A stretch of 64,000 nt of DNA from Escherichia coli (GCF_045037415.1 NZ_CP173438.1), one strand, 5' to 3'; counted from the stretch's first letter, positions 2,637 to 15,600 are shown. Program-made: numbers and translations. Notes: generated by a model from the sequence alone, not told the origin.

Positions 2637-2721
<85 letters not shown>

Positions 2722-2737
2722 TCACTCGATTCCATTA

Positions 2738-3829
2738 TCAAACCTTCGGCTTCTCCCCCATTCGCCGTAAAAACTGCTGCTGTAGCCTCAACAAATCCGC
2801 TAACGTCAACAACTGATAATCCAGACCTTGCTGGCTGGCAATTTGCGCAATAATGCGGCTTAGCGCCGAATAATGGCGATGATGCCAGTGAGGAAACAGA
2901 TGATGGGTAAGGTGCAGATTAATCCCACCCAGCCAGTAGCCAAGCCATGCAGGTTGCGGCGTCCAATCAAAGGTGGTAGCAAAGGTATGCGCCAGTCTGC
3001 CCACGGGCATTTTGCCCTCTTCTGGTGGTAACTGCGTATGTCCCTTCGCCCAGTGCGTTCCAATAATCAACGTCACAAAAATCAATGACGCCAGCAGCTG
3101 GCTGAGCAGATAAGTCAGCAGGATGGTCATAAAACTAAAATCAGACAAAAGCCAGGGAATTATCAGACACAGCGCACAATGCGCCAGTTTCCCGGCTAAG
3201 AAATATCCCCAGCCAGCAAAGCCTCGCAGGGCCAGATGTCGCGTGACCGGCGTAAACCCTGCGCGATCGAGCCAGTCCACTACCCAGATATACCAGGGAA
3301 AGGTGAGCGCGGCGACCAGTGGCCAATAGCGATGTTGCTGGCGCATAAAAGGTCGCCACCGTTGCCACGGCGTCTGGCGAAGAATGCCATTTTCTGCTGT
3401 ATCTGGATCGTAAAATTCAATATTGGTAAAACCGTGATGAAAGCGAACGTGGCGCACCCGCCAGCAGTCCGGATCTAGCCCCATAGGAAAAGCAACCCAC
3501 CGGTTAAGCCGGGCATTGGTCTTTTTACCACGCAAAAACGCATCATGCGAAGCGTCATGCACCACATTGACCGCTAACAACATGGCGCAAAACATCATCG
3601 CGAGATACCACAACAGATACAGTCCCCATTGACGTTGAAATAACGCCAGTAAGTAACAGGAGAAACAAGCAATAATCAACACCGCCATTTTGACGAATGC
3701 CCATCCGTCGGCATACCGATGATCGCCTGATTTCGCCAGATAAACTTTCGTACCGCTTTGCAGTTGTTTCACCAGTTGTGGATCATCGGCAGGAAAAGTG
3801 ATTAACCTGTCGGGATTAAACAGGTTCAT
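2738..3829 (-). CDS. Membrane fatty-acid desaturase family protein
   Basis: 363 aa and polytopic. Three histidine boxes are visible: HDASHD, HVRFHH, HLTHHLFPHWHH. The ATG at 3829 overlaps the upstream gene by 14 nt. Confidence 0.8.
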   Translation of the reverse strand: MNLFNPDRLITFPADDPQLVKQLQSGTKVYLAKSGDHRYADGWAFVKMAVLIIACFSCYLLALFQRQWGLYLLWYLAMMFCAMLLAVNVVHDASHDAFLRGKKTNARLNRWVAFPMGLDPDCWRVRHVRFHHGFTNIEFYDPDTAENGILRQTPWQRWRPFMRQQHRYWPLVAALTFPWYIWVVDWLDRAGFTPVTRHLALRGFAGWGYFLAGKLAHCALCLIIPWLLSDFSFMTILLTYLLSQLLASLIFVTLIIGTHWAKGHTQLPPEEGKMPVGRLAHTFATTFDWTPQPAWLGYWLGGINLHLTHHLFPHWHHRHYSALSRIIAQIASQQGLDYQLLTLADLLRLQQQFLRRMGEKPKV

Positions 3830-4940
3830 ACTGTTTCCTTAGCGATTTACGTCCTACGCCGATTACAAATAACAGGCAATGGGCCAGCAGAATACCCACT
3901 AATCCCTTCCAGAGCAGAGTACTCCATGAACACATATAGACAATAAAATAGAGCAGTGACAACGTCACAGAGCACCACAAAATCATACCCCAATGCTGCC
4001 CGTCGCTCATGCCCCCCAGCGCAACGGAGCCTGCCGCCAGCAGAACAAATAATACGGCTTGCTCGCTGGTAATAAACTCAATGCCATAGCCATATTGTTG
4101 AATGTAGCCAAGCACCAGCATAAACAGCAGGATCACCCCTGCCCCTACCGCCCATGGAGAACTCTGGTAGCGACCTTCAATCGCTTTGCCAAATGAGCAA
4201 AAGCCCATTAAGCGTAAAAATGGCAGATTACTCTCGCGCATCGGGTTACAGGACAAGCGACTATTTTTTACGCCGTAGCCTACGTCGTATTCCGGCCCGG
4301 CACTATACGAACCGAAAAGTTTATCCCACAACAAAAAGGTGCCACCGTAATTGGTATCGGCATATTGCTTTTGATTCAGATGATGGACGCGATGATGCGA
4401 AGGCGTGATCAGCACTTTTTCCAGCCAGCCCAGTTTCGGCGTTAGTGCGTTATGGTTAAAAAATTGCCAACTATAGTGAATAATAGAAACCGCCAAAAAG
4501 ACCTGTAACGGCACACCAAGCATCGCCAGCAGCATAAAAAACGGGATTGAGGTTAACGAGGAGTACCACGAGTTCCGCACGCCTAATGACAGGTTGTAGT
4601 GTTCCCCCTGATGATGCACCACATGTACCGCCCACAGCGGGCGCATTTCGTGATGCCAGCGATGTAGCCAGTAAAAGCCGAAATCCCACGCCAGGATAGT
4701 AAACAACCACAGCAGGATCACCGGCACATTATCAAACAGTCCAAGGCTGAAGTGATTGACCACCAGGCCATAGCAGAGCACTTCCAGGCAGCGAAATAAC
4801 CACAGCATCATATGACCGGAGTTGATATTAAAAATAACGTCCAGCCAGTCCACTTTTTGCCGCCCGGTGAATTGCAACACGCCCGCTTCGGCTAACACCA
4901 ACAGCACCATCGATATGATGGGGAATAATAAATCACTCAT
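3816..4940 (-). CDS. Fatty-acid hydroxylase / sterol desaturase family protein with extra C-terminal TM region
   Basis: 374 aa. His boxes HRWHHE, HVVHHQGEH and HHRVHH are present. The start overlaps the upstream PAP2 gene by 8 nt. Confidence 0.8.
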   Translation of the reverse strand: MSDLLFPIISMVLLVLAEAGVLQFTGRQKVDWLDVIFNINSGHMMLWLFRCLEVLCYGLVVNHFSLGLFDNVPVILLWLFTILAWDFGFYWLHRWHHEMRPLWAVHVVHHQGEHYNLSLGVRNSWYSSLTSIPFFMLLAMLGVPLQVFLAVSIIHYSWQFFNHNALTPKLGWLEKVLITPSHHRVHHLNQKQYADTNYGGTFLLWDKLFGSYSAGPEYDVGYGVKNSRLSCNPMRESNLPFLRLMGFCSFGKAIEGRYQSSPWAVGAGVILLFMLVLGYIQQYGYGIEFITSEQAVLFVLLAAGSVALGGMSDGQHWGMILWCSVTLSLLYFIVYMCSWSTLLWKGLVGILLAHCLLFVIGVGRKSLRKQYEPV

Positions 4941-5535
4941 ATTGTGTCTTCCTTTTCTCGCATGTTGCGCATATCCAACCGCAAATCGACGCCAGCAACG
5001 CGCCGCCTACTAAATCGATAAATAAATGTCTGCGTAATTGCAGAATCGAAAAGGCGATTGCTATCGCCCAGACCACGCTCATTAGCGTCAGCCAACGGTT
5101 CCCCTTTTTAGCAATCGCCCATACCGCCAACAGCGTTAGCGCGGCGTGTAAGGAGGGAAAACAGTTCTGGCTTGAGTCAATGGCGATCAGCCTGTTGAGT
5201 GCGCCCGCGGATATCCCCATCTGATCAAACGAGGGATAATGCATGGTTGTGGGCCAGAGAAGATAAAATACGCCAGCCACCAGTGCGGAAATTTGCATTG
5301 AACGGGCCAGCCAGCGCAGGTGGCAAAGTGGCGTGGATAAATAACCTAACGGCACAATGAAAAAAAACGAGAGATACAGCCACACAGCGGAGGGGGAAAA
5401 CGCAATCAAATTATCAATTATTGACGGTGTTAATTGATATCCCTCACCTTGCAGGTAGTCGCTAAAGTTGTAGATAACCCCAACAGTTCCCCAGCCCAGC
5501 AGCATCTGTTTCAGGCGTAGCAGTGAATTGCTCAT
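4933..5535 (-). CDS. PAP2-superfamily membrane phosphotransferase/phosphatase (PAP2_C-like)
   Basis: The ORF track extends to 5697, but the ATG at 5535 forms an ATGA overlap with the upstream stop, giving 200 aa (MSNSLLRL...). Motifs FPSLHAA and RRHLFID resemble PAP2 C2/C3. Confidence 0.7.
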   Translation of the reverse strand: MSNSLLRLKQMLLGWGTVGVIYNFSDYLQGEGYQLTPSIIDNLIAFSPSAVWLYLSFFFIVPLGYLSTPLCHLRWLARSMQISALVAGVFYLLWPTTMHYPSFDQMGISAGALNRLIAIDSSQNCFPSLHAALTLLAVWAIAKKGNRWLTLMSVVWAIAIAFSILQLRRHLFIDLVGGALLASICGWICATCEKRKTQYE

Positions 5536-6818
5536 TCCCGCCCCCACTGACGCACAATGCGCCGCCGCTTGGCTGTAAAAGAGACTGGCACAGTTTGCAG
5601 TTCCAGCGACCAAATTAATTGCCCGACAGCGATATCCTGGCGTATAAACAAGGCATTCAACGCCTCCCGGCAATGCTCCAGCATCCACAGCTCGCAATCG
5701 GCGATTAACGTCAATTGTGCTGACCCGGTTTGTAGCAGGCGATAATCGACTGTTAGCGGCAGTGTCATTGCCAGCACACGACTACAGGCATCGGCAAAAA
5801 CGGTCTGAATATCGCCGGATCTTGTTGGTAGTTGCAGTTGGTCATCCTGCCGCCCTTCGATACGCGCAATCGCCATTGTTGCACTGCCACAGGGGCATGG
5901 CTGTTCGCTTGCCACCAGCACATCATCCAGTCGATAACGCACTATCGGCTGTGTGGTGCGGGTAAAGTCTGTGACGATCGGCACGAAACGGTGCTCATCC
6001 AGCCATTGCGGTTCAATGTGAACAAACTCTTCGTTGAGATGTAACGTTCCACACCGGCAGGTGGAAGCGAGAAAGCCTTCTGTCGCCTGATAAATTTCCC
6101 CCACATTGTGGAACACGTTGCGCAGTAATTCCCGATCCTGCGGCTCCAGAACTTCCGCCACCGAAATCACTTTTTTGACCTTTAGCGTCAATTCGCCGGC
6201 CATCACCTCCAGCGCCAGTGCGCGTAATACCTGAGCTGGCGCGACAATAATCGTGGGCGCTCGCTGTTGGAGAAGTTTGAGTTGCGCCTGAAATGGCGCT
6301 AGCAGATCGTAAAAATCGAGACTTAACCAGCGATTATTCACGCTTTGATACAGGTTGTTGTCCGCGCGCAGAAACAGCGCCACCCGCTCTTTGGCAAATA
6401 AATCATCGGGCAACACTTTTGCCAGCACACCGGCGGCCCACATCTGTTGCTCGTGCGGGCTAACAACAAAAAGTCCACGACGCCCGGATGTACCTGATGA
6501 AAGCCCAACGCTGAACTTACCAACGCAGGGTTTGAAATCACGACTCTGCTCACTGCGCATTGCACAATCGAGAAGTTCGTCGCGCTTTAAACCTGCGGTA
6601 TTCATCTCATCGAAGTGCGTCATCATTAACGCTTTATCCATCATTGGCCACTGATTAAAGGGCAACGTCAGATAACGCTGAAACCACGGGCTATGAGATA
6701 AGACATTTTGCCGGAACTGATGCAGCCTTTTTGCCTGCCAGTTTTCCAGTGCCTCGCGATCGGTGAAATGCAGCCTGCGGGTACGGAAGTAGCGCCAGAT
6801 CAACATCAACGGGATCAT
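5532..6818 (-). CDS. F390-synthetase-related / PaaK-like adenylate-forming enzyme
   Basis: 428 aa. Carries the SSGTSGRRG adenylation P-loop-like motif. The length and layout are typical of coenzyme F390 synthetase-related proteins. ATGA overlap with the MBL gene. Confidence 0.7.
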   Translation of the reverse strand: MIPLMLIWRYFRTRRLHFTDREALENWQAKRLHQFRQNVLSHSPWFQRYLTLPFNQWPMMDKALMMTHFDEMNTAGLKRDELLDCAMRSEQSRDFKPCVGKFSVGLSSGTSGRRGLFVVSPHEQQMWAAGVLAKVLPDDLFAKERVALFLRADNNLYQSVNNRWLSLDFYDLLAPFQAQLKLLQQRAPTIIVAPAQVLRALALEVMAGELTLKVKKVISVAEVLEPQDRELLRNVFHNVGEIYQATEGFLASTCRCGTLHLNEEFVHIEPQWLDEHRFVPIVTDFTRTTQPIVRYRLDDVLVASEQPCPCGSATMAIARIEGRQDDQLQLPTRSGDIQTVFADACSRVLAMTLPLTVDYRLLQTGSAQLTLIADCELWMLEHCREALNALFIRQDIAVGQLIWSLELQTVPVSFTAKRRRIVRQWGRE

Positions 6819-7621
6819 AAATCCCCCTCATGGCACAAACGAATCTCCACCACACCGTTTTGCCAAAGCTGATGGAGTTGCCCAAGCGTGTGGTAGTAGG
6901 CGTGGCTGTCGGACATAACCAGATGCGCCAGTGGTGAAGGCCCTCGCAGCTCCCGGTAGTTAGCTGGCGCCCATGCCGCATCGCCAGCCAGTAAAGTCCA
7001 GCCGTTGTCGGTTAACACAAACGCGCCAATATGTCCGGCAGCATGTCCTGGAAGCGGCACGAGAATAATTTCGCCATTGCTTTCTGGCAGCAAATAGCCG
7101 CACTCAAACGGTGCCAGTTGCGCGGGCAAATTCACCGATGCGAAACTTTCAATAAAGCGCAGTGAGGAGTCAAAATTCTCCGGGATTAGCCCTGGCACAA
7201 AGGCCTGGCGCAGCGCAGTGACACCACGCAGAGTTCTTACTTGCCGCCAGCCTTCACCAGAACAGATGCAGGAAACATCAGGGAAATCACGCAGGCCAGC
7301 AATATGATCAGCGTGAAAATGCGACAGAATAATCGCATCAACATCTTTCGCTGCGAGGCCGGTGGCAGAAAGTTGTCGCACCAGCGCCTGTTGCGGATCG
7401 AAATAAACCGGCGTGACCTGGCGATAAAGACGAAACACACCAGATTGCGTGTAGTGTTCGAACCACGATGAATAGCCTGTGTCCCACAGCCACCGTTTGT
7501 CGCCCACCTCCAGCAGCCAGGCGCGGGCGGGGAATTTGCACACTTTCAGCCCTGCCCCTTTCAGCGCAATACAGCTAATATGGGTACACCAGCCCGTTTC
7601 AAATGCGGTTATTTTTGCCAT
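6815..7621 (-). CDS. MBL-fold metallo-hydrolase
   Basis: 268 aa with the HFHADHIAG (HxHxDH) zinc motif and a later PGHAAGH. Confidence 0.8.
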   Translation of the reverse strand: MAKITAFETGWCTHISCIALKGAGLKVCKFPARAWLLEVGDKRWLWDTGYSSWFEHYTQSGVFRLYRQVTPVYFDPQQALVRQLSATGLAAKDVDAIILSHFHADHIAGLRDFPDVSCICSGEGWRQVRTLRGVTALRQAFVPGLIPENFDSSLRFIESFASVNLPAQLAPFECGYLLPESNGEIILVPLPGHAAGHIGAFVLTDNGWTLLAGDAAWAPANYRELRGPSPLAHLVMSDSHAYYHTLGQLHQLWQNGVVEIRLCHEGDL

Positions 7622-8615
7622 GTTCCCTCAGCCATTGTCCCGTGATTGCAATACCTTGTTCCATCGAAAAGCGTGGGCGATATCCCAGCTCTGTAATGGC
7701 CTTTTGCGCACTCAGCGTCATATCGAAACAGAGTGTTCCGGCGCTGTATCGTGTGATAACAGGTTCCTGATTAACGCACTTCCCATACAGTTCCAGGCCA
7801 CGCGCGATCAGAGAAAGCAGCGACCAGGGAACAGCAGCAATGCGGTAACTCAAGCCCAGTTGCTGGTGCAGCAAGGCGTCAAGCATCACCGATAGCTGCT
7901 GCGGCTGGTGATTGCTGATGTTGTAAATACTGCCCGAGCGTAAGCCTTCAACGTTCGTTGCCAGCCGCATGGCATACACCACGTTTTGCACGAACGTGAG
8001 ATCCAATAACGCGTCGCCCCCGCGCGGCAAACGTAAGCAACCGCCGCCCTGTTGCAATTGCTGCATCAGACGAGGAACAATTACCTGGTCATGGGGGCCA
8101 AACAAACCACGGGGACGCAAAAGAATAAATCTCGTGGCAGAATATCGAGAAACAGCGCCAGCAATAACCTGCTCAGCGGCATATTTACTGCTGGCATAAT
8201 GGCTGGAGAATGCTCGCGCAAGATAAGTTTCTGGCAGGTCATAGTGATGTTGAAAATCAAAGTAAACCGCAGGCGTGGAGATATGGATAAACCGGGGAAT
8301 ATTCAGCCTGCCTGCCGCCTGTGCCAGAGTGTGGGTCACTTTGACATTGGCAAGCCAGAACGCCGTTTTGTCGCCCCAGGGCGAGGACTTTGCCGCACAG
8401 TGCCAGACGGCATCGCAGCCGTCCATCAGGCGGGCGCAGTCATCCTCGGTTGCCTCGGTTAAATCGAGAGCCACAAACTGTGCGCCTGCGTTTGTCAGGC
8501 TTCTGCCAACCTCACAATTTCGCCCTGTTGCCACAACCGACTCACCCGATTGCAACAAATATTGCACGGCATTTCGCCCAAGGCCGCTGGTCGCCCCTGT
8601 TACGAGGATCTTCAC
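7599..8615 (-). CDS. NAD(P)-dependent epimerase/dehydratase (extended SDR) family protein
   Basis: 338 aa. Has the N-terminal Rossmann motif VTGATSGLG and the catalytic motif YASSKYAAE (YxxxK). The GTG start forms a GTGA overlap with the KAS III stop. Confidence 0.8.
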   Translation of the reverse strand: MKILVTGATSGLGRNAVQYLLQSGESVVATGRNCEVGRSLTNAGAQFVALDLTEATEDDCARLMDGCDAVWHCAAKSSPWGDKTAFWLANVKVTHTLAQAAGRLNIPRFIHISTPAVYFDFQHHYDLPETYLARAFSSHYASSKYAAEQVIAGAVSRYSATRFILLRPRGLFGPHDQVIVPRLMQQLQQGGGCLRLPRGGDALLDLTFVQNVVYAMRLATNVEGLRSGSIYNISNHQPQQLSVMLDALLHQQLGLSYRIAAVPWSLLSLIARGLELYGKCVNQEPVITRYSAGTLCFDMTLSAQKAITELGYRPRFSMEQGIAITGQWLREHGKNNRI

Positions 8616-9619
8616 GGTAAAAGCACCATGCCAGCCAGCGTTAGTCCCGCTGCCGTGCCAATCAACATTACAGGTTTATCCGCTGTGAAACGACCGCTAA
8701 TCACTGCTTCATGCAGCGCCGTGGGGATAGAGGCCGCGACCTGATTGCCGTAAAAACGATACACATCGATGAGCGCAGATTCCGGCACTCGCAGCCGTTT
8801 ACGCATATGTTCAAGGGAAAGATGACTGGCCTGATGCGGAACGACCGTGCCGATATCAGACAGTTGCAGGCTGCTTTTTTGCAGCAACCGAGAAAAATAA
8901 TCTTCAATAAGCGAAGAAGCAAAACGAAACAGCGGTTTCCCCTGCATATGAAAAAGAAAGTCGCTATCACTCACACCAGAGCGAGGATTACGCCGCGTAC
9001 CGCCAGCACGAATTTCACACAGTTCGCTGCCTTCGGGATACATTTCGATCAGGCTAGCGATAATCCCGCTGCGCCCATCGCCCCGCTCAACAATCGCGCA
9101 CGCCGCGCCATCACCAAAAATTAATGAAGACTCTTCATGATCCCAGTCGATACCGCGTGAAGCAATATCTGCCGAAACGATGGCAATGCGTCGATATGCT
9201 CCACAGTTTAATAATCCGGCAGCGACTTCAAGAGCGGAAATAAAGCTCACACAGCTACTGTTGATATCAAACCCGGCAACGCCTACGGGCATGGCTGCGG
9301 CTTTAAGAATATGAATTGCGCTACAGGGTAATGCCTGTACGGCAATGGCCGATGCACAAATTAGCAGATCAATATCAGAAGGATTTAAGGCTGCCGCTAC
9401 TAACGCATTATGTAAAGCCTCTGCCGCCAGTTCGGCCTGGCTGGCGTCGTTGCGGGCAAAATAGCGCCAGCAAATACCGGAACGTCGCTCAACATAGCCA
9501 ACTGGCTTATTTAACTGAACATCCAGTTGTTTAGAAGTGATTTGATCAGGGGGTAAGGCGATCCCCGTGGCGATTATTTTTAACGCCGCGGAGATCGTCG
9601 GTTGATTAGGTCGAGCCAC
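8612..9619 (-). CDS. FabH-like 3-oxoacyl-ACP synthase III (KAS III) family protein
   Basis: Cys-His-Asn triad contexts are DINSSCVSF, VPHQASH and YGNQVAASIP. The ORF track starts at TTG 9655. I prefer GTG 9619, which is preceded by AAGGAG. Confidence 0.75.
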   Translation of the reverse strand: MARPNQPTISAALKIIATGIALPPDQITSKQLDVQLNKPVGYVERRSGICWRYFARNDASQAELAAEALHNALVAAALNPSDIDLLICASAIAVQALPCSAIHILKAAAMPVGVAGFDINSSCVSFISALEVAAGLLNCGAYRRIAIVSADIASRGIDWDHEESSLIFGDGAACAIVERGDGRSGIIASLIEMYPEGSELCEIRAGGTRRNPRSGVSDSDFLFHMQGKPLFRFASSLIEDYFSRLLQKSSLQLSDIGTVVPHQASHLSLEHMRKRLRVPESALIDVYRFYGNQVAASIPTALHEAVISGRFTADKPVMLIGTAAGLTLAGMVLLP

Positions 9620-9714
9620 GGTCAGTGCTCCTTCACTGCTCCATAGGTGGACCAATCATATAGATGAAGTACGTTTCCCTACAATCCGAAAAATCGGCAG
9701 TGTGTAACCGCCGA

Positions 9715-9746
9715 TGTTTGGTTTAGATAATGTTTGGTTTAGATAA
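9715..9746. repeat. Perfect 16-bp tandem duplication TGTTTGGTTTAGATAA x2 abutting the narI stop codon
   Basis: 9715-9730 and 9731-9746 are identical when read directly. It lies in the short spacer between narI and the KAS III gene. Confidence 0.95.
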
Positions 9747-10424
9747 TTAGTGACGAGCGCGCACCAGCTGATACTTACGCGTCAGATACTCCACCGGGAC
9801 ACTCCAGATGTGTACCAGACGCGAGAACGGGAACAGCAGGAATAACGTCATCCCCAACACCAGGTGCAGACGGAAGATAAACGCCACGCCATCAAGATGT
9901 TGAGAAGCGCCACCGTGGAAGGTCACTACCGACTGCGCCCAGCCAACCAGTTTCATCATCTCGCTACCGTCCATATGCTGAGCAGAGAACGGAATGGTCA
10001 GCAGGCCCAGCGCGCACTGGATAACGAGCAGCGACAGGATCAGGATATCCGCTCCGGTAGTCGTTGCACGCACGCGTGGGCTGAACAGACGGCGTTTCAA
10101 CAACAGCACGCCGCCAATCAGACACAGTACGCCGCTGGCACCACCAGCAAACATCGCCATTTTCTGCTTCACTTCAATCGGCAGCCAGGCTTCATACATC
10201 CAGTGCGGCGTCAGCATACCGAAGAAGTGACCGACAAAAATCCCCAGAATACCGATATGGAACAGGTTCGACGCCAGATTCATCCCTTTGCGATCCAGCA
10301 TCTGGCTGGACGCCGCGCGCCAGGTATACTGCCCGTAGTCATAACGCAGCCAGCTACCAATCAGGAAGACCGCCCCGGCTATGTACGGGTAGATATCAAA
10401 GAAGAACATATTCAGGAATTGCAT
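9747..10424 (-). CDS. narI: Respiratory nitrate reductase 1 gamma subunit
   Basis: 225-aa polytopic [23 protein letters not shown]... at the end of the narGHJI operon. Confidence 0.97.
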
Positions 10425-11134: not shown

Positions 11135-12669
11135 GGGTGCGGCTCCGTTTTGCTGGTTACGTCGATGGCATCGATACGGCGGCTGTTGAACAGATTGAAT
11201 TTGGTATCTGAACCGTGGCAGCCATCACCAAAGGTAAAGCCGCAGCCATTTTTCTCCGGGAAGGCTTCCCGCGCCAGTTCACGATGACTGCTCGGCACCA
11301 CAAAGCGATCTTCGTAGTTGGCAATAGCCAGATAACGATACATCTCCTGTGCCTGGGCTTCGGTCAGACCGACCTCTTCCAGCGCACGGGTATCGACTTT
11401 ACCGTCAACGGTTTCAGCACGTTTGTAATGACGCATCGCCAGCATACGTTTCAGCGCGCGCAGTACCGGTTTGGTATCACCGGCGGTCAGCAGATTCGCC
11501 AGATACTGTACCGGAATACGCAGGCTTTCGACGTCTGGCAGAATGCCGTTGCTGCCCAGTTCACCCGCGTCTGCCGCAGACTGAATCGGCGACAGAGGCG
11601 GCACGTACCAGACCATCGGCAATGTGCGATATTCCGGATGCAGCGGCAGCGCCAGTTTCCATTCCATCGCCATTTTATAAACTGGCGACTGCTGCGCAGC
11701 CTCAATAACGCTCAGCGGAATACCGTCTTTAATCGCCTGCTCGATGACTTTCGGATCGTTCGGATCGAGGAACACATCCAGCTGACGCTGGTAGAGATCT
11801 TTCTCGTTCTCGGTACTTGCCGCACGTTCAATCGCGTCGGCATCGTACAGCAGCACGCCAAGATAACGGATACGACCGACACAGGTTTCTGAACATATTG
11901 TCGGCTGGCCGGCTTCAATACGCGGATAGCAGAAGATGCACTTCTCAGACTTACCGCTCTTCCAGTTGAAGTAGATTTTTTTGTACGGGCATCCGGTGAT
12001 GCACATACGCCAGCCACGGCATTTATCCTGGTCGATCAGGACGATGCCGTCTTCTTCACGCTTGTAAATCGCACCGCTCGGGCAGGTCGCCACACATGCC
12101 GGGTTCAGACAGTGTTCGCACAGGCGCGGCAAATACATCATGAAGGTGTTTTCGAACTGGCTATACATCGCCTTCTGGATGTTGTCGAAGTTCTTGTCTT
12201 TCGCCAGCTTGTCAAACTCACCGCCCAGGTCATCTTCCCAGTTCGGCCCTTTTTCGATTTTCGCCATCCGTTCGCCGGTAATCAGCGAACGCGGACGGGC
12301 AATCGGCTGTGATTTGCTGCCTTCCGGCGCGGTATGCAGGTTCTGATAATCAAAATCAAACGGCTCGTAATAATCGTCGATCCCCGGCAGATGCGGGTTA
12401 GCGAAGATTTTACCCAGCAGCATGGCACGGTTACCCATGCGCGGCTGCAGTTTGCCGTTGATTTTACGGATCCAGCCGCCTTTGTATTTTTCCTGGTTTT
12501 CCCAGTCAGTCGGGAAGCCCTGGCCCGGCTTGGTTTCCACGTTGTTGAACCACGCGTATTCCACGCCTTCACGGCTGGTCCAGACGTTTTTACAGGTCAC
12601 TGAACAGGTGTGGCAGCCGATGCACTTATCGAGATTCAGCACCATGCCGACTTGTGAACGAATTTTCAT
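11131..12669 (-). CDS. narH: Respiratory nitrate reductase 1 beta (Fe-S) subunit
   Basis: 512 aa with multiple CxxCxxCxxxC ferredoxin clusters (CIGCHTCSVTC, CEHCLNPACVATC). Confidence 0.97.
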   Translation of the reverse strand: MKIRSQVGMVLNLDKCIGCHTCSVTCKNVWTSREGVEYAWFNNVETKPGQGFPTDWENQEKYKGGWIRKINGKLQPRMGNRAMLLGKIFANPHLPGIDDYYEPFDFDYQNLHTAPEGSKSQPIARPRSLITGERMAKIEKGPNWEDDLGGEFDKLAKDKNFDNIQKAMYSQFENTFMMYLPRLCEHCLNPACVATCPSGAIYKREEDGIVLIDQDKCRGWRMCITGCPYKKIYFNWKSGKSEKCIFCYPRIEAGQPTICSETCVGRIRYLGVLLYDADAIERAASTENEKDLYQRQLDVFLDPNDPKVIEQAIKDGIPLSVIEAAQQSPVYKMAMEWKLALPLHPEYRTLPMVWYVPPLSPIQSAADAGELGSNGILPDVESLRIPVQYLANLLTAGDTKPVLRALKRMLAMRHYKRAETVDGKVDTRALEEVGLTEAQAQEMYRYLAIANYEDRFVVPSSHRELAREAFPEKNGCGFTFGDGCHGSDTKFNLFNSRRIDAIDVTSKTEPHP

Positions 12670-15600
12670 TTTACGCTCTCCTGTACCTGGTCATTGCCTT
12701 CGCCATCTAACCAGTCAATGTTCTTCATCTTACGCACTACAACAAACTCATCGCGGTTAGAACCTACGGTGCCGTAGTAGTTAAAGCCATATGCCAGATG
12801 GGCATAGCCGCCGATCATATGCGTCGGTTTCGGCGTGATACGGGTGACCGAGTTATGGATACCACCACGCTGTTGGGTAATTTCCGAACCAGGCAGGTTA
12901 ACGATACGTTCCTGCGCGTGGTACATCATGGTCATCCCTGCCGGAACACGCTGGCTGACAACCGCACGGGCAGTCAGTGCACCGTTGCTGTTGAAGACTT
13001 CAATCCAGTCGTTATCGGCGATACCCAGCTCTTTGGCATCGGCTTCACTCAGCCAGACCACCGGACCACCGCGACCTAAAGTCAGCATCAACAGGTTGTC
13101 GCTGTAGGTGGAGTGGATACCCCACTTCTGGTGTGGCGTCAGGAAGTTGAGCGCTTTTTCCGGGTTGCCATTGGATTTCTGGCCCATCACTTCTTTCACC
13201 GAACGGGTGTCGATCGGCGGACGATAAACCAGCAGGCTTTCACCGAAATCACGCATCCATTGGTGATCCTGATACAGCTGCTGACGGCCAGAGAGCGTAC
13301 GCCACGGGATCAGCTCGTGAACGTTGGTGTAACCGGCGTTGTAAGAAACGTGTTCATCTTCAAGGCCAGACCATGTCGGGCTGGAGATGATTTTGCGCGG
13401 CTGTGCCTGAATATCGCGGAAGCGAATCTTCTCGTCTTCTTTATTCAGCGCCAGATGCGTATGGTCACGGCCGGTAAACTCGCTCAGGGCAGCCCAGGCT
13501 TTTACAGCTACCTGACCGTTGGTTTCCGGTGCCAGCGTCAGGATCATCTCTGCCGCATCAATTGCGGTATTGAGCATCGGCTGACCTTTTGCCGGACCTT
13601 CCGCTTTTGTGTAGTTGAGCTTACGCAGCAGATCCATCTCGCTCTGGGTGTTCCAGGCAATCCCTTTACCGCCGTTACCGATTTTCTCCATCAGCGGGCC
13701 GATAGAGGTAAAGCGTTCGTAAGTTGCCGGATAATCGCGCTCTACGACCATAATGTGCGGTGCGGTTTTACCTGGGATCAGGTCGCATTCGCCTTTTTTC
13801 CAGTCTTTCACATCCAGCGGTTGCGCCAGTTCAGCGGCAGAGTCGTGCTGGATAGGCAGCGTGACGATGTCAGTTTCTTTACCCAGATGACCAACGCACA
13901 CTTCGGAGAATTTCTTCGCGATGGCTTTGTAGATTTCCCAGTCGCTTTTCGCTTCCCAGGCCGGATCGACCGCCGCAGACAGCGGGTGAATAAACGGATG
14001 CATATCCGAAGTATTCATGTCGTCTTTTTCGTACCAGGTCGCCGTCGGCAAAATGATGTCGGAATAGAGACAGGTGCTCGACAGACGGAAGTCCAGCGTC
14101 ACCACCAGATCCAGCTTGCCTTCCAGACCGTTGTCCTGCCAGTCCACTTCTTCCGGCTTCACGCCGCCCTGCTGCCCCAGGTCTTTGCCCTGGATACCGT
14201 GCTCCGTCCCCAGCAGGTACTTGAGCATAAACTCATGACCTTTACCGGAAGAACCGAGCAGGTTAGAACGCCAGATGAACAGGTTACGCGGGTGGTTTTT
14301 ACCGTTTTCCGGCTGTTCCGCAGCGAAACGGATAGAACCCTCTTTCAGGGATTTCACCGTATAGTCCACCGGATTCATCCCGGCTTTTTCTGCTTCGCGA
14401 GCGATAGTCAGCGGGTTAGTGCCTAACTGCGGCGCAGACGGCAGCCAGCCCATGCGTTCTGCACGGACGTTAAAGTCGATCAAGTGTCCGGTATAGCGAG
14501 ATTTATCCGCCATCGGCGACAGCAGTTCTTCCGCAGTCACGGTTTCATAACGCCACTGGCTGGAGTGGTTATAGAAATAAGAGGTACTGTTCATGTGACG
14601 CGCCGGACGCTGCCAGTCGAGGGCAAACGCCAGCGGCTGCCAGCCGGTTTGCGGACGCAGTTTTTCCTGACCTACATAGTGCGCCCAGCCGCCCCCGCTC
14701 TGACCGACACAACCGCAGAAAATCAGCATGTTGATCAGACCACGATAGTTCATGTCCAGGTGATACCAGTGGTTCAGCCCTGCGCCGACGATAATCATCG
14801 AACGACCGTGCGTTTTATCAGCGTTATCGGCAAATTCACGGGCGATGCGAATAATCTGGCTGCGAGAAACGCCGGTAATCTGCTCTGCCCAGGCAGGGGT
14901 GTAAGCTTTCACATCGTCATAGCTGGTTGCACAGTTAACGTCGTTCAGGCCACGTTCCAGACCGTAGTTTGCCAGCGTCAGATCATAAACGGTGGTCACC
15001 AGGGCGGTGCTGCCATCAGCCAGTTGCAGGCGTTTCACCGGCAGCTTATGCAGCAGCACGTTTTCCAGTTCCACTTTGTTGAAGTGTTCCGTGCCATCGC
15101 CACCAAAGTACGGGAAGCCCACCTCAGCGATCTCATCCTGGCTACCCAGCAGGCTCAGTTGCAGCTCGGTTTCTTCGCCAGTTTTGCCGTCGCGCTGCTC
15201 AAGATTCCATTTGCCCTTCTCGCCCCAGCGGAAGCCAATAGAACCGTTCGGCGCAACCATTTCACCATTGGTATTAAAGGCGACAGTTTTCCATTCCGGA
15301 TTGTTTTCCTGGCCCAGTGCATCCACCAGATCAGCAGCGCGCAGCATACGACCCGCAGCGTAGTAACCGTCGCGCTCTTCCAGCATCACCAGCATCGGCA
15401 TGTCGGTGTAGCGGCGCACATAGTCGGTGAAATACTGGCTTGGGTTGTCGAGGTGGAATTCACGCAGCATTACGTGACCCATTGCCAGCGCCATTGCCGC
15501 ATCGGTGCCCTGTTTCGGTGCCAGCCACAGATCGCACAGTTTGGCGATTTCAGCGTAGTCTGGTGTGACGGCAACAGTTTTGGTCCCTTTGTAACGCACT

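Follow-up and report, generated by a model that had tools for sequence, protein, structure and literature searches.

We analysed a 64,000-nt stretch of Escherichia coli DNA (GCF_045037415.1, NZ_CP173438.1), called the window here, with coordinates counted from its first letter. We found, by open reading frame (ORF) calling and in RefSeq, that positions 2738-9619, between narI and a tRNA-Tyr gene, are filled by seven minus-strand ORFs that encode a condensing enzyme, a reductase, a hydrolase, an adenylating enzyme and three membrane proteins. We judge the chances to be about even that these genes form an autonomous, translationally coupled seven-gene operon that is ancestral in Escherichia and most likely builds a specialised membrane lipid of a non-glycerol kind.

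Gene structure and enzyme families

A first-pass annotation of the window had described seven overlapping minus-strand genes making up a single operon of lipid-type enzymes. RefSeq calls the identical set in genomes that match the window across this interval at 100% identity. Every junction overlaps as had been claimed, by 4 (GTGA), 23, 4 (ATGA), 4 (ATGA), 8 and 14 nt from gene 1 to gene 7, and this compact, overlap-linked arrangement supports the single operon. Only the starts of two genes changed: the TTG starts of the ORF listing make gene 1 and the PAP2 gene too long, and RefSeq places them at GTG 9619 and ATG 5535, respectively. The genes and their two neighbours, with SDR standing for short-chain dehydrogenase/reductase and MBL for metallo-beta-lactamase, are as follows.

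8612-9619, minus strand: gene 1, KAS III-type condensing enzyme, 335 aa, Cys-His-Asn triad intact
7599-8615, minus strand: gene 2, extended SDR, 338 aa, YASSK
6815-7621, minus strand: gene 3, MBL-fold hydrolase, 268 aa, HFHADH
5532-6818, minus strand: gene 4, F390 synthetase-related adenylate-forming enzyme of the PaaK type, 428 aa, TIGR02304
4933-5535, minus strand: gene 5, PAP2_3-type membrane protein, 200 aa, PSLH and RRHLFID
3816-4940, minus strand: gene 6, di-iron membrane enzyme of the FA_hydroxylase/sterol-desaturase family, 374 aa
2738-3829, minus strand: gene 7, membrane FA_desaturase, 363 aa, HDASH, HVRFHH and HLTHH
9747-10424, minus strand: narI, last gene of narGHJI, flanking the operon on the outside
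2637-2721, plus strand: tRNA-Tyr(GUA), the other flank, converging on gene 7, whose stop codon is 16 nt away

The catalytic motifs are intact in all seven proteins. No integrase or transposase was found in 2738-9619, where the seven enzymes occupy all of the coding capacity, and the block is thus integrase-less as first described. The genes are already annotated individually, and there is nothing exotic about them; clear membership exists only at the level of the individual family, and we found no characterised pathway with this combination of enzymes. The first-pass annotation had raised the case of a homologous cluster with an assigned product. None turned up in full-text literature searches, which gave nothing on the cluster itself either (supplementary tables and subscription journals lay outside their scope).

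Pfam and NCBIfam assign the proteins to KAS III, extended SDR (Epimerase/3Beta_HSD), MBL (Lactamase_B), TIGR02304, PAP2_3, FA_hydroxylase and FA_desaturase. Six of the seven families named in the first-pass annotation agree with this; the seventh, PAP2_C, has to be replaced by PAP2_3 (PF14378) and PAP2 (PF01569). In the KAS III protein, both ACP_syn_III and ACP_syn_III_C score above the Pfam cutoffs, and C123, H262 and N292 stay unchanged when the protein is aligned with FabH. Over its full length the protein is 36% identical to MxnB and 33% to CorB, compared with 28% to E. coli FabH, and MxnB and CorB are its closest solved homologues (E-values of 2.7e-49 and 8e-45). It does not reach the FabH equivalog level (331.7 against a cutoff of 402 for the best model, PRK07204; 192.9 against 292 for TIGR00747, fabH), carries Leu where FabH has the chain-length-limiting Phe87, and has a 5-residue insertion in common with MxnB. 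MxnB and CorB reportedly fuse two acyl chains head to head, without decarboxylation. The best NCBIfam family for the SDR is OleD, a 2-alkyl-3-oxoalkanoate reductase (2.5e-44 and 1.4e-42, full length), and its best solved relative is NSDHL, a beta-hydroxy-acid dehydrogenase/decarboxylase. The head-to-head condensation proposed in the first-pass annotation fits both the nearest characterised homologues of the KAS III protein and this reductase family. The nearest neighbours of the KAS III protein and of the SDR, which are independent of each other, thus both point to a beta-keto acid, possibly 2-alkyl-branched, as the putative central intermediate.

The MBL protein resembles lactonases, namely 4-pyridoxolactonase and the N-acyl-homoserine lactone lactonases AiiA and AiiB; PqsE was not among its sequence matches. 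The adenylating enzyme scores 748.5 bits against TIGR02304 (cutoff 251.9) and contains the ANL motifs SSGTSG, YQATEG and GRQDD, with no AMP-binding match in Pfam. By sequence it belongs to the PaaK family, and a Foldseek search with a poor AlphaFold model agrees, at a low TM-score (~0.3). A lactonase, a CoA-ligase-like enzyme, a dehydrogenase and a thiolase-fold enzyme could also form a catabolic, beta-oxidation-like route, with opening of a lactone by the first, activation of the hydroxy acid by the second, then oxidation by the SDR and cleavage by the thiolase-fold enzyme; the SDR relatives NSDHL and SdmB are indeed oxidative. We hold such a role to be extremely unlikely, as the triad of gene 1 is the Cys-His-Asn of KAS III and polyketide-type enzymes and not the Cys-His-Cys of degradative thiolases, and as the constant association with head-group transferases, desaturases and glycosyltransferases speaks for biosynthesis; no uptake system is linked to the cluster.

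The PAP2 protein has PSLH and RRHLFID and lacks KX6RP, and thus does not show the full three-motif pattern of PAP2 phosphatases (KX6RP, PSGH, SRX5HX3D). PAP2 proteins without KX6RP show a pattern typical of phosphotransferases such as AUR1 and SMS. Because this motif is missing, we rejected a role as a lipid A or undecaprenyl phosphatase (PgpB, LpxE or UppP type). The hydroxylase, whose best match is OlsE, has the His boxes HRWHH, HVVHH and HHRVHH, several hydrophobic segments and, at the C-terminus, a further block with some four more of these segments. The desaturase has three His boxes and several hydrophobic segments, and its best match is CrtR; for the Serratia paralogues it is DesA/DesB. 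FA_hydroxylase and FA_desaturase both score above the Pfam cutoff, and searches of solved structures with the desaturase, the hydroxylase and the PAP2 protein gave no matches. Membrane di-iron desaturases and hydroxylases need O2.

These three proteins had been linked in the first-pass annotation to DES1, SUR2 and inositolphosphorylceramide (IPC) synthase of eukaryotes. The link stands at the superfamily level and fails at the family level, where the model for phosphoinositol dihydroceramide synthase gives the PAP2 protein only 19 bits (cutoff 480; E-value 5.6e-4) and the di-iron enzymes match OlsE and CrtR best. A true bacterial sphingolipid or ceramide pathway with an unrecognised substitute for serine palmitoyltransferase would account for the presence of PAP2_3, FA_hydroxylase and FA_desaturase and of the GT21 glycosyltransferase found in sister clusters, all of them superfamilies that decorate ceramide in eukaryotes, and for the weak synthase match. 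Such a pathway is highly improbable in our view: Pfam detects no aminotransferase or serine palmitoyltransferase domain in the seven proteins, just as had first been noted, nor did one appear beside related loci; the cluster has no pyridoxal phosphate-dependent alpha-oxoamine synthase or other nitrogen-introducing enzyme; no Lipid_DES domain is found in the desaturase; the matches to sphingolipid enzymes lie far under their cutoffs; and the GT21 protein is nearest to HpnI, an enzyme of hopanoid synthesis. Hopanoid or sterol metabolism was also rejected, in spite of weak matches to HpnA, HpnI, SdmB and NSDHL, because E. coli is not known to have a squalene pathway.

Ancestry of the locus and its conserved core

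The cluster is present in 673 of the 5426 complete E. coli genomes, and a 173-bp K-12-type spacer in 4739. Cluster and spacer appear to be two mutually exclusive alleles, with the exclusivity read from the sum of the two counts (5412 of 5426). The cluster is carried by, among others, ST131-type strains, ATCC 25922, clone D i2 and an O127:H6 strain, all of which we take to be of phylogroup B2. The K-12 interval contains only ychS, rttR/tpr, tyrV and tyrT, in keeping with the first-pass annotation, which gave only tyrV and the rtT/tpr repeats there. Homology between the window and K-12 breaks exactly at the narI stop codon and inside the rtT repeat region, and K-12 has there an unrelated 162 bp with a terminator of its own and a REP-like sequence.

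We surveyed one genome per species, which returned 80 loci. The order narI-cluster-purU was found in four further lineages of Escherichia (E. albertii, E. whittamii and cryptic clades), Superficieibacter, Kosakonia and an Enterobacter, and narI lies directly upstream of the cluster in 15 Serratia species. Altogether narI is adjacent in 25 of the 80 species loci, and in the other 55 the cluster is away from nar. In comparisons with E. whittamii, E. albertii and a cryptic clade, the ratio of nonsynonymous to synonymous substitution (dN/dS) was 0.06-0.19, which means purifying selection, and the dS of the cluster (0.21-0.55) was similar to that of narI (0.13-0.48). The GC content of 0.46-0.55 is like that of the flanks.

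These data bear on the earlier description of the block as wedged in at tRNA-Tyr. If it were a horizontally acquired island, integrated at the tRNA gene in phylogroup B2 with later loss of the integrase, its absence from K-12 and from 87% of complete E. coli genomes would be explained, as would its position 16 nt from the tRNA 3' end and the close homologues in Pseudomonas, Snodgrassella and Azonexus. However, besides lacking an integrase, the block has no att-like copy of the tRNA 3' end at its distal limit, where the sole notable repeat is a 16-bp tandem at 9714-9745. The flank-like GC, the gene order shared with other Escherichia and other genera, the narI-like dS, and the position of the K-12 break, exactly at the narI stop and at a native rtT repeat with unrelated DNA in between, all speak against insertion. 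We therefore set aside the wedged insertion and consider an island very unlikely. The simplest reading is that the locus is ancestral to the genus Escherichia at narI-purU and was lost or replaced in most E. coli. The close homologues in distant taxa imply that, over long periods, the cluster does pass from one lineage to another.

The order KAS III-SDR-MBL-F390 is kept in every non-truncated locus of the species survey, and the genes that follow this core vary.

59 of 80 species loci: PAP2-hydroxylase-desaturase tail, often with a second desaturase
14 of 80: tail of a second OleD-like SDR, GT21, a 194-aa unknown protein and GT1
4 of 80: both tails
3 of 80: no tail, or tail lost at a contig edge

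The SDR-GT21-GT1 tail occurs in Citrobacter, Kosakonia and the Yersinia pestis representative; its GT21 is closest to HpnI, and its SDR matches OleD at 3e-38. Two tandem desaturase paralogues are present in Serratia, Pectobacterium, Erwinia and Rahnella (loci L019, L028 and others, ~12024-14188). The E. coli desaturase is the orthologue of the second (55-59% identity in Serratia, versus 46-49% to the first), from which it follows that the Escherichia lineage is without the first. The genes flanking the cluster in Pectobacterium and in Pseudomonas are mutually unrelated, which supports the cluster boundaries as given, and these flanks contain no conserved regulator, transporter or acyl carrier protein (ACP).

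A profile search of 1.84 billion representative proteins gave 576 F390-related clusters (50% identity) at E <= 1e-30. Among them were two kinds of fusion, by which functions of this cluster are physically joined. A 705-aa MBL-F390 fusion is present on nine contigs (locus L087, 8001-10118), in an operon of TetR-KAS III-SDR-fusion-GT4 whose GT4 is like diacylglycerol glycosyltransferases. A 642-aa PAP2_3-F390 fusion (locus L090, 8001-9929) has a PAP2 part that is 44% identical to the window protein. Other distant partners of the core are a Rieske oxygenase with a DUF3419 protein, the latter presumably of the BtaA family, an OlsF-like acyltransferase/ornithine-lipid synthase and an ATP-grasp protein.

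The tails and fusions also help to judge whether the product is a diffusible small molecule (for example a dialkyl alpha-pyrone, or a signal of the lactone or 3-hydroxy-acid kind) and not a structural lipid, with the membrane enzymes serving in tailoring or resistance. The pyrone-forming MxnB and CorB as closest solved homologues of the KAS III protein, the likeness of the MBL protein to quorum-quenching lactonases, and the four-gene core with little or no tail in Snodgrassella and Xenorhabdus would all suit such a product. Yet the core is joined to membrane lipid enzymes or lipid-type glycosyltransferases in 77 of the 80 species loci, the PAP2_3-F390 fusion places the adenylating enzyme at the membrane, and no receptor, regulator or exporter is linked to the cluster in Enterobacterales. 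A diffusible product is quite unlikely on this evidence.

Several observations were made on the surroundings of the cluster and on single carriers. In the window, only one tRNA-Tyr gene lies between purU and the desaturase gene (2478-2760), without rtT repeats or tyrV. K-12, AZ159 and ATCC 25922 have two tRNA-Tyr genes, with rtT also in K-12 and ATCC 25922; a single-tRNA junction like that of the window is found in 491 complete E. coli genomes. Transcription running past the end of tyrT would go antisense into the desaturase gene. Rfam matches were to tRNA only. In E. coli FXCREC145 (NZ_CM135823.1) an IS30-like ISApl1 transposase lies inside the cluster, which matches in two pieces over ~8.1 kb. 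The KAS III gene is apparently split or stop-interrupted, with the rest intact, in Yersinia pestis NCTC5923 (L025, 6167-7175) and Pseudomonas caricapapayae (L017, 6155-7192), and these two copies may be pseudogenes. Elsewhere in the window (~38574-64000), a 391-aa ORF directly after ychF is annotated in AZ159 as a tyrosine recombinase/integrase and is followed by insertion sequence fragments and hypothetical genes. This is a true integrase-bearing island, unrelated to the lipid operon.

The gap between narI and gene 1

A gap of 127 nt separates the narI stop from the start codon of gene 1, which runs in the same direction as narGHJI; the first-pass annotation had put this gap at about 130 bp. 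The features that we read in it are as follows.

9714-9745, minus strand: perfect tandem duplication of 16 bp (ATGTTTGGTTTAGATA x2, read on the plus strand), immediately past the narI stop
9689-9715, minus strand: terminator-like hairpin, stem 9715-9707/9701-9693 with a 5-nt loop (9706-9702), followed by a U-run
9655-9684, minus strand: promoter-like site TTGTAG-18 nt-TATGAT, with 3/6 and 5/6 consensus matches, read by eye
9628-9633, minus strand: Shine-Dalgarno AAGGAG, 8 nt before the GTG of gene 1

The 16-bp unit is single-copy in ATCC 25922, and other Escherichia species have REP-like elements at the same position.

The first-pass annotation saw no convincing terminator in the gap. We found that the hairpin, 31 nt past the narI stop, has 9 bp and folds with -12.8 kcal/mol, comparable to K-12's own narI terminator (-14.8). 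Both the hairpin and the promoter-like site come from reading and folding the sequence, and neither was listed in a consensus scan; we think that the scan missed the hairpin by extending the stem to 9 bp, which left four U in the tail. Superficieibacter, Kosakonia and the Enterobacter sp. have textbook intrinsic terminators after narI and then a short spacer before the KAS III gene. In addition, a non-coding block of ~95 nt (9619-9715), made up of the hairpin, the promoter-like site, a leader and the Shine-Dalgarno sequence, varies hardly at all between E. coli, E. albertii, E. whittamii and two cryptic clades while the dS of the neighbouring genes is 0.2-0.55, showing that the block is under constraint. 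No Rfam family matches it. Its conservation suggests a candidate regulatory element beyond a plain promoter.

From the hairpin, the promoter-like site, the Shine-Dalgarno sequence and the terminators in other genera, we infer that these signals work; the operon looks like a transcription unit of its own, separate from nar. The genes could instead be a 3' extension of the narGHJI transcript, expressed anaerobically with nitrate. The shared strand, the 127-nt gap, the short U-run and the narI adjacency in 25 of the 80 species would fit an extension, but the hairpin with its U-run, the conserved promoter-like block and the strong Shine-Dalgarno do not, and neither do the unmistakable intrinsic terminators after narI in other genera, the 55 species loci away from nar and the need of two enzymes for O2. 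We regard it as very improbable that the genes belong to the nar transcript. The first-pass annotation had also contrasted the O2-requiring enzymes with the anaerobically induced operon upstream; with a hairpin, a promoter-like site and a strong ribosome-binding site separating the operon from narI, this paradox of O2 and nitrate is largely gone.

A possible lipid pathway and its relation to known systems

We infer the substrates, the order of steps and the product from the families described above. The four soluble core enzymes would act in gene order. In the first step, the KAS III enzyme would perform a Claisen condensation of two acyl thioesters, or of an acyl thioester with malonyl-ACP, to give a beta-keto acyl thioester that is probably 2-alkyl-branched. 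The OleD/NSDHL-like SDR would then reduce the beta-keto group, the lactonase-like MBL hydrolase would free the acid from a thioester or lactone, and the PaaK/F390-type enzyme would adenylate the freed carboxylate for transfer or cyclisation. We place hydrolysis and adenylation as consecutive steps because the MBL-F390 fusion exists. Coupling or cyclisation of the activated acid would yield a hydroxyl-bearing two-tailed lipid. To its hydroxyl the PAP2_3 protein, AUR1-like in lacking KX6RP, may add a phospho-head group taken from a phospholipid, and the di-iron hydroxylase and the desaturase would modify the chains using O2. In sister lineages, the glycosyltransferase tails may glycosylate the same anchor to give glycolipid versions.

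A wider proposal is possible, though we hold it more tentatively and well short of an even chance: the four-gene core may be a widespread, undescribed route to a membrane-lipid anchor that uses neither glycerol nor serine palmitoyltransferase, in which a two-tailed branched hydroxy-acid or diol mimics ceramide or diacylglycerol and takes phospho-, glyco- or betaine-type head groups.

The core could also be an analogue of the Ole and lipstatin systems, in which head-to-head condensation, keto-reduction and adenylation-driven formation of a beta-lactone, followed by opening or decarboxylation by the MBL enzyme, lead to a beta-lactone lipid or a long-chain olefin for the membrane enzymes to oxidise and decorate. 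All four Ole functions have counterparts in the core: the condensing enzyme has the thiolase fold, OleD is the best family of the SDR (1e-44) and is matched by the second SDR as well (3e-38), the hydrolase is of the lactonase type, the adenylating enzyme is of the ANL superfamily, and the MBL-F390 fusion suits consecutive steps. We nevertheless consider an Ole-like route unlikely, since the match of the KAS III protein to OleA (Xanthomonas structures) is only ~5e-6, compared with 1e-42 to 1e-49 for FabH and MxnB; the adenylating enzyme is of the PaaK/F390 type, without an AMP-binding Pfam match, and is not OleC-like; the cluster has no alpha/beta-hydrolase OleB; and the SDR is far under the OleD cutoff. 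A hydrocarbon, moreover, would be no obvious acceptor for the PAP2 or glycosyltransferase tails unless it were first hydroxylated.

Several points weigh against our preferred reading, an autonomous ancestral operon for a non-glycerol membrane lipid derived from a branched hydroxy acid. All of its chemistry is drawn from homology at the family level. FabH enzymes of other bacteria score close to MxnB and CorB as matches of the KAS III protein (1.5e-42 versus 2.7e-49), so that ordinary decarboxylative condensation with malonyl-ACP is also possible. The SDR scores 152 bits against an OleD equivalog cutoff of 580, and its relative NSDHL acts oxidatively, with decarboxylation. The MBL protein could act as a thioesterase or lactonase, or in yet another way. 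The model that AlphaFold gave for the F390-type enzyme is poor (pLDDT 65.7, from a 13-sequence alignment), and the PAP2_3-F390 fusion was seen on only one metagenomic contig. Genes for an ACP, an acyltransferase or a transporter are absent from the cluster. As to ancestry, at least one cluster-less genome has purU, rssA and narI proteins identical to those of carriers (the same RefSeq accessions as ATCC 25922), which means that there is no simple clade boundary and that recombination or repeated loss is part of the history of the cluster in E. coli. As to autonomy, the -35 element is weak and the promoter-like site below the scan threshold, and the U-run after the hairpin is short enough that some read-through from nar is possible.

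The lipid metabolism of E. coli is regarded as essentially complete and as having no desaturases. About 12% of finished E. coli genomes, those of ST131, ATCC 25922 and E2348/69 included, keep an intact lipid-type operon under selection with two O2-dependent di-iron enzymes. Once identified, the product could extend the Gram-negative envelope by a further class of lipid, with consequences for how hosts recognise the cells, how membranes adapt to oxygen and how E. coli lineages differ. A core that is fixed across at least 80 species, with ~576 family clusters at 50% identity and interchangeable head-group modules, is what a general lipid-anchor pathway would look like. If the core is such a route, then pandemic extraintestinal E. 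coli, Serratia, Pectobacterium, the lineage of the plague bacillus and P. syringae would share a new class of envelope lipid, made partly by O2-dependent enzymes that have not so far been attributed to E. coli.

Among known systems, FabH has the same fold and catalytic triad as gene 1, but gene 1 differs from it in identity (28%) and in having Leu for Phe87, and stands apart from the fab cluster in a dedicated operon. MxnB and CorB, and enzymes of the PpyS type, resemble gene 1 over the full length and have the same Cys-His-Asn triad. They act, however, on carrier-bound chains in large polyketide synthase/non-ribosomal peptide synthetase lines, whereas the window cluster has no polyketide synthase and no ACP. 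OleABCD, lipstatin and nocardiolactone clusters likewise pair a condensing enzyme of the thiolase fold with an extended SDR that acts on a beta-keto or beta-hydroxy acid, and encode an adenylate-forming enzyme and a hydrolase in the same operon. In OleABCD these are the thiolase OleA, OleC and the alpha/beta-hydrolase OleB, in place of the FabH/MxnB-type, PaaK/F390-type and MBL proteins of the window, and Ole clusters are without membrane enzymes or glycosyltransferases, while the window operon has three membrane enzymes. In PqsA-PqsD-PqsE, an acid-activating ligase and a KAS III-type condensing enzyme work with an MBL hydrolase that frees a beta-keto acid. The window has the same three kinds of enzyme, and PqsD is among the solved homologues of its KAS III protein (8.6e-22); the Pqs system differs in its anthranilate chemistry, and the window in its SDR and membrane enzymes.

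The tails of this and the sister clusters come from the superfamilies of AUR1-type IPC synthase, SUR2/OlsE, acyl-lipid desaturases, GT21/HpnI and diacylglycerol glycosyltransferases. Enzymes that decorate ceramide or diacylglycerol have a two-tailed membrane lipid as their substrate, of which they modify the hydroxyl or the chains. The likeness to them holds at the superfamily level only, with scores under every equivalog cutoff. As the cluster contains no enzyme that forms a sphingoid base or diacylglycerol, the acceptor of the tail enzymes would have to be some other lipid, made by the four-gene core. Taken together, these comparisons suggest that the cluster would work most like a hybrid of the Ole, MxnB and Pqs systems that feeds decorating enzymes of the ceramide or diacylglycerol type.

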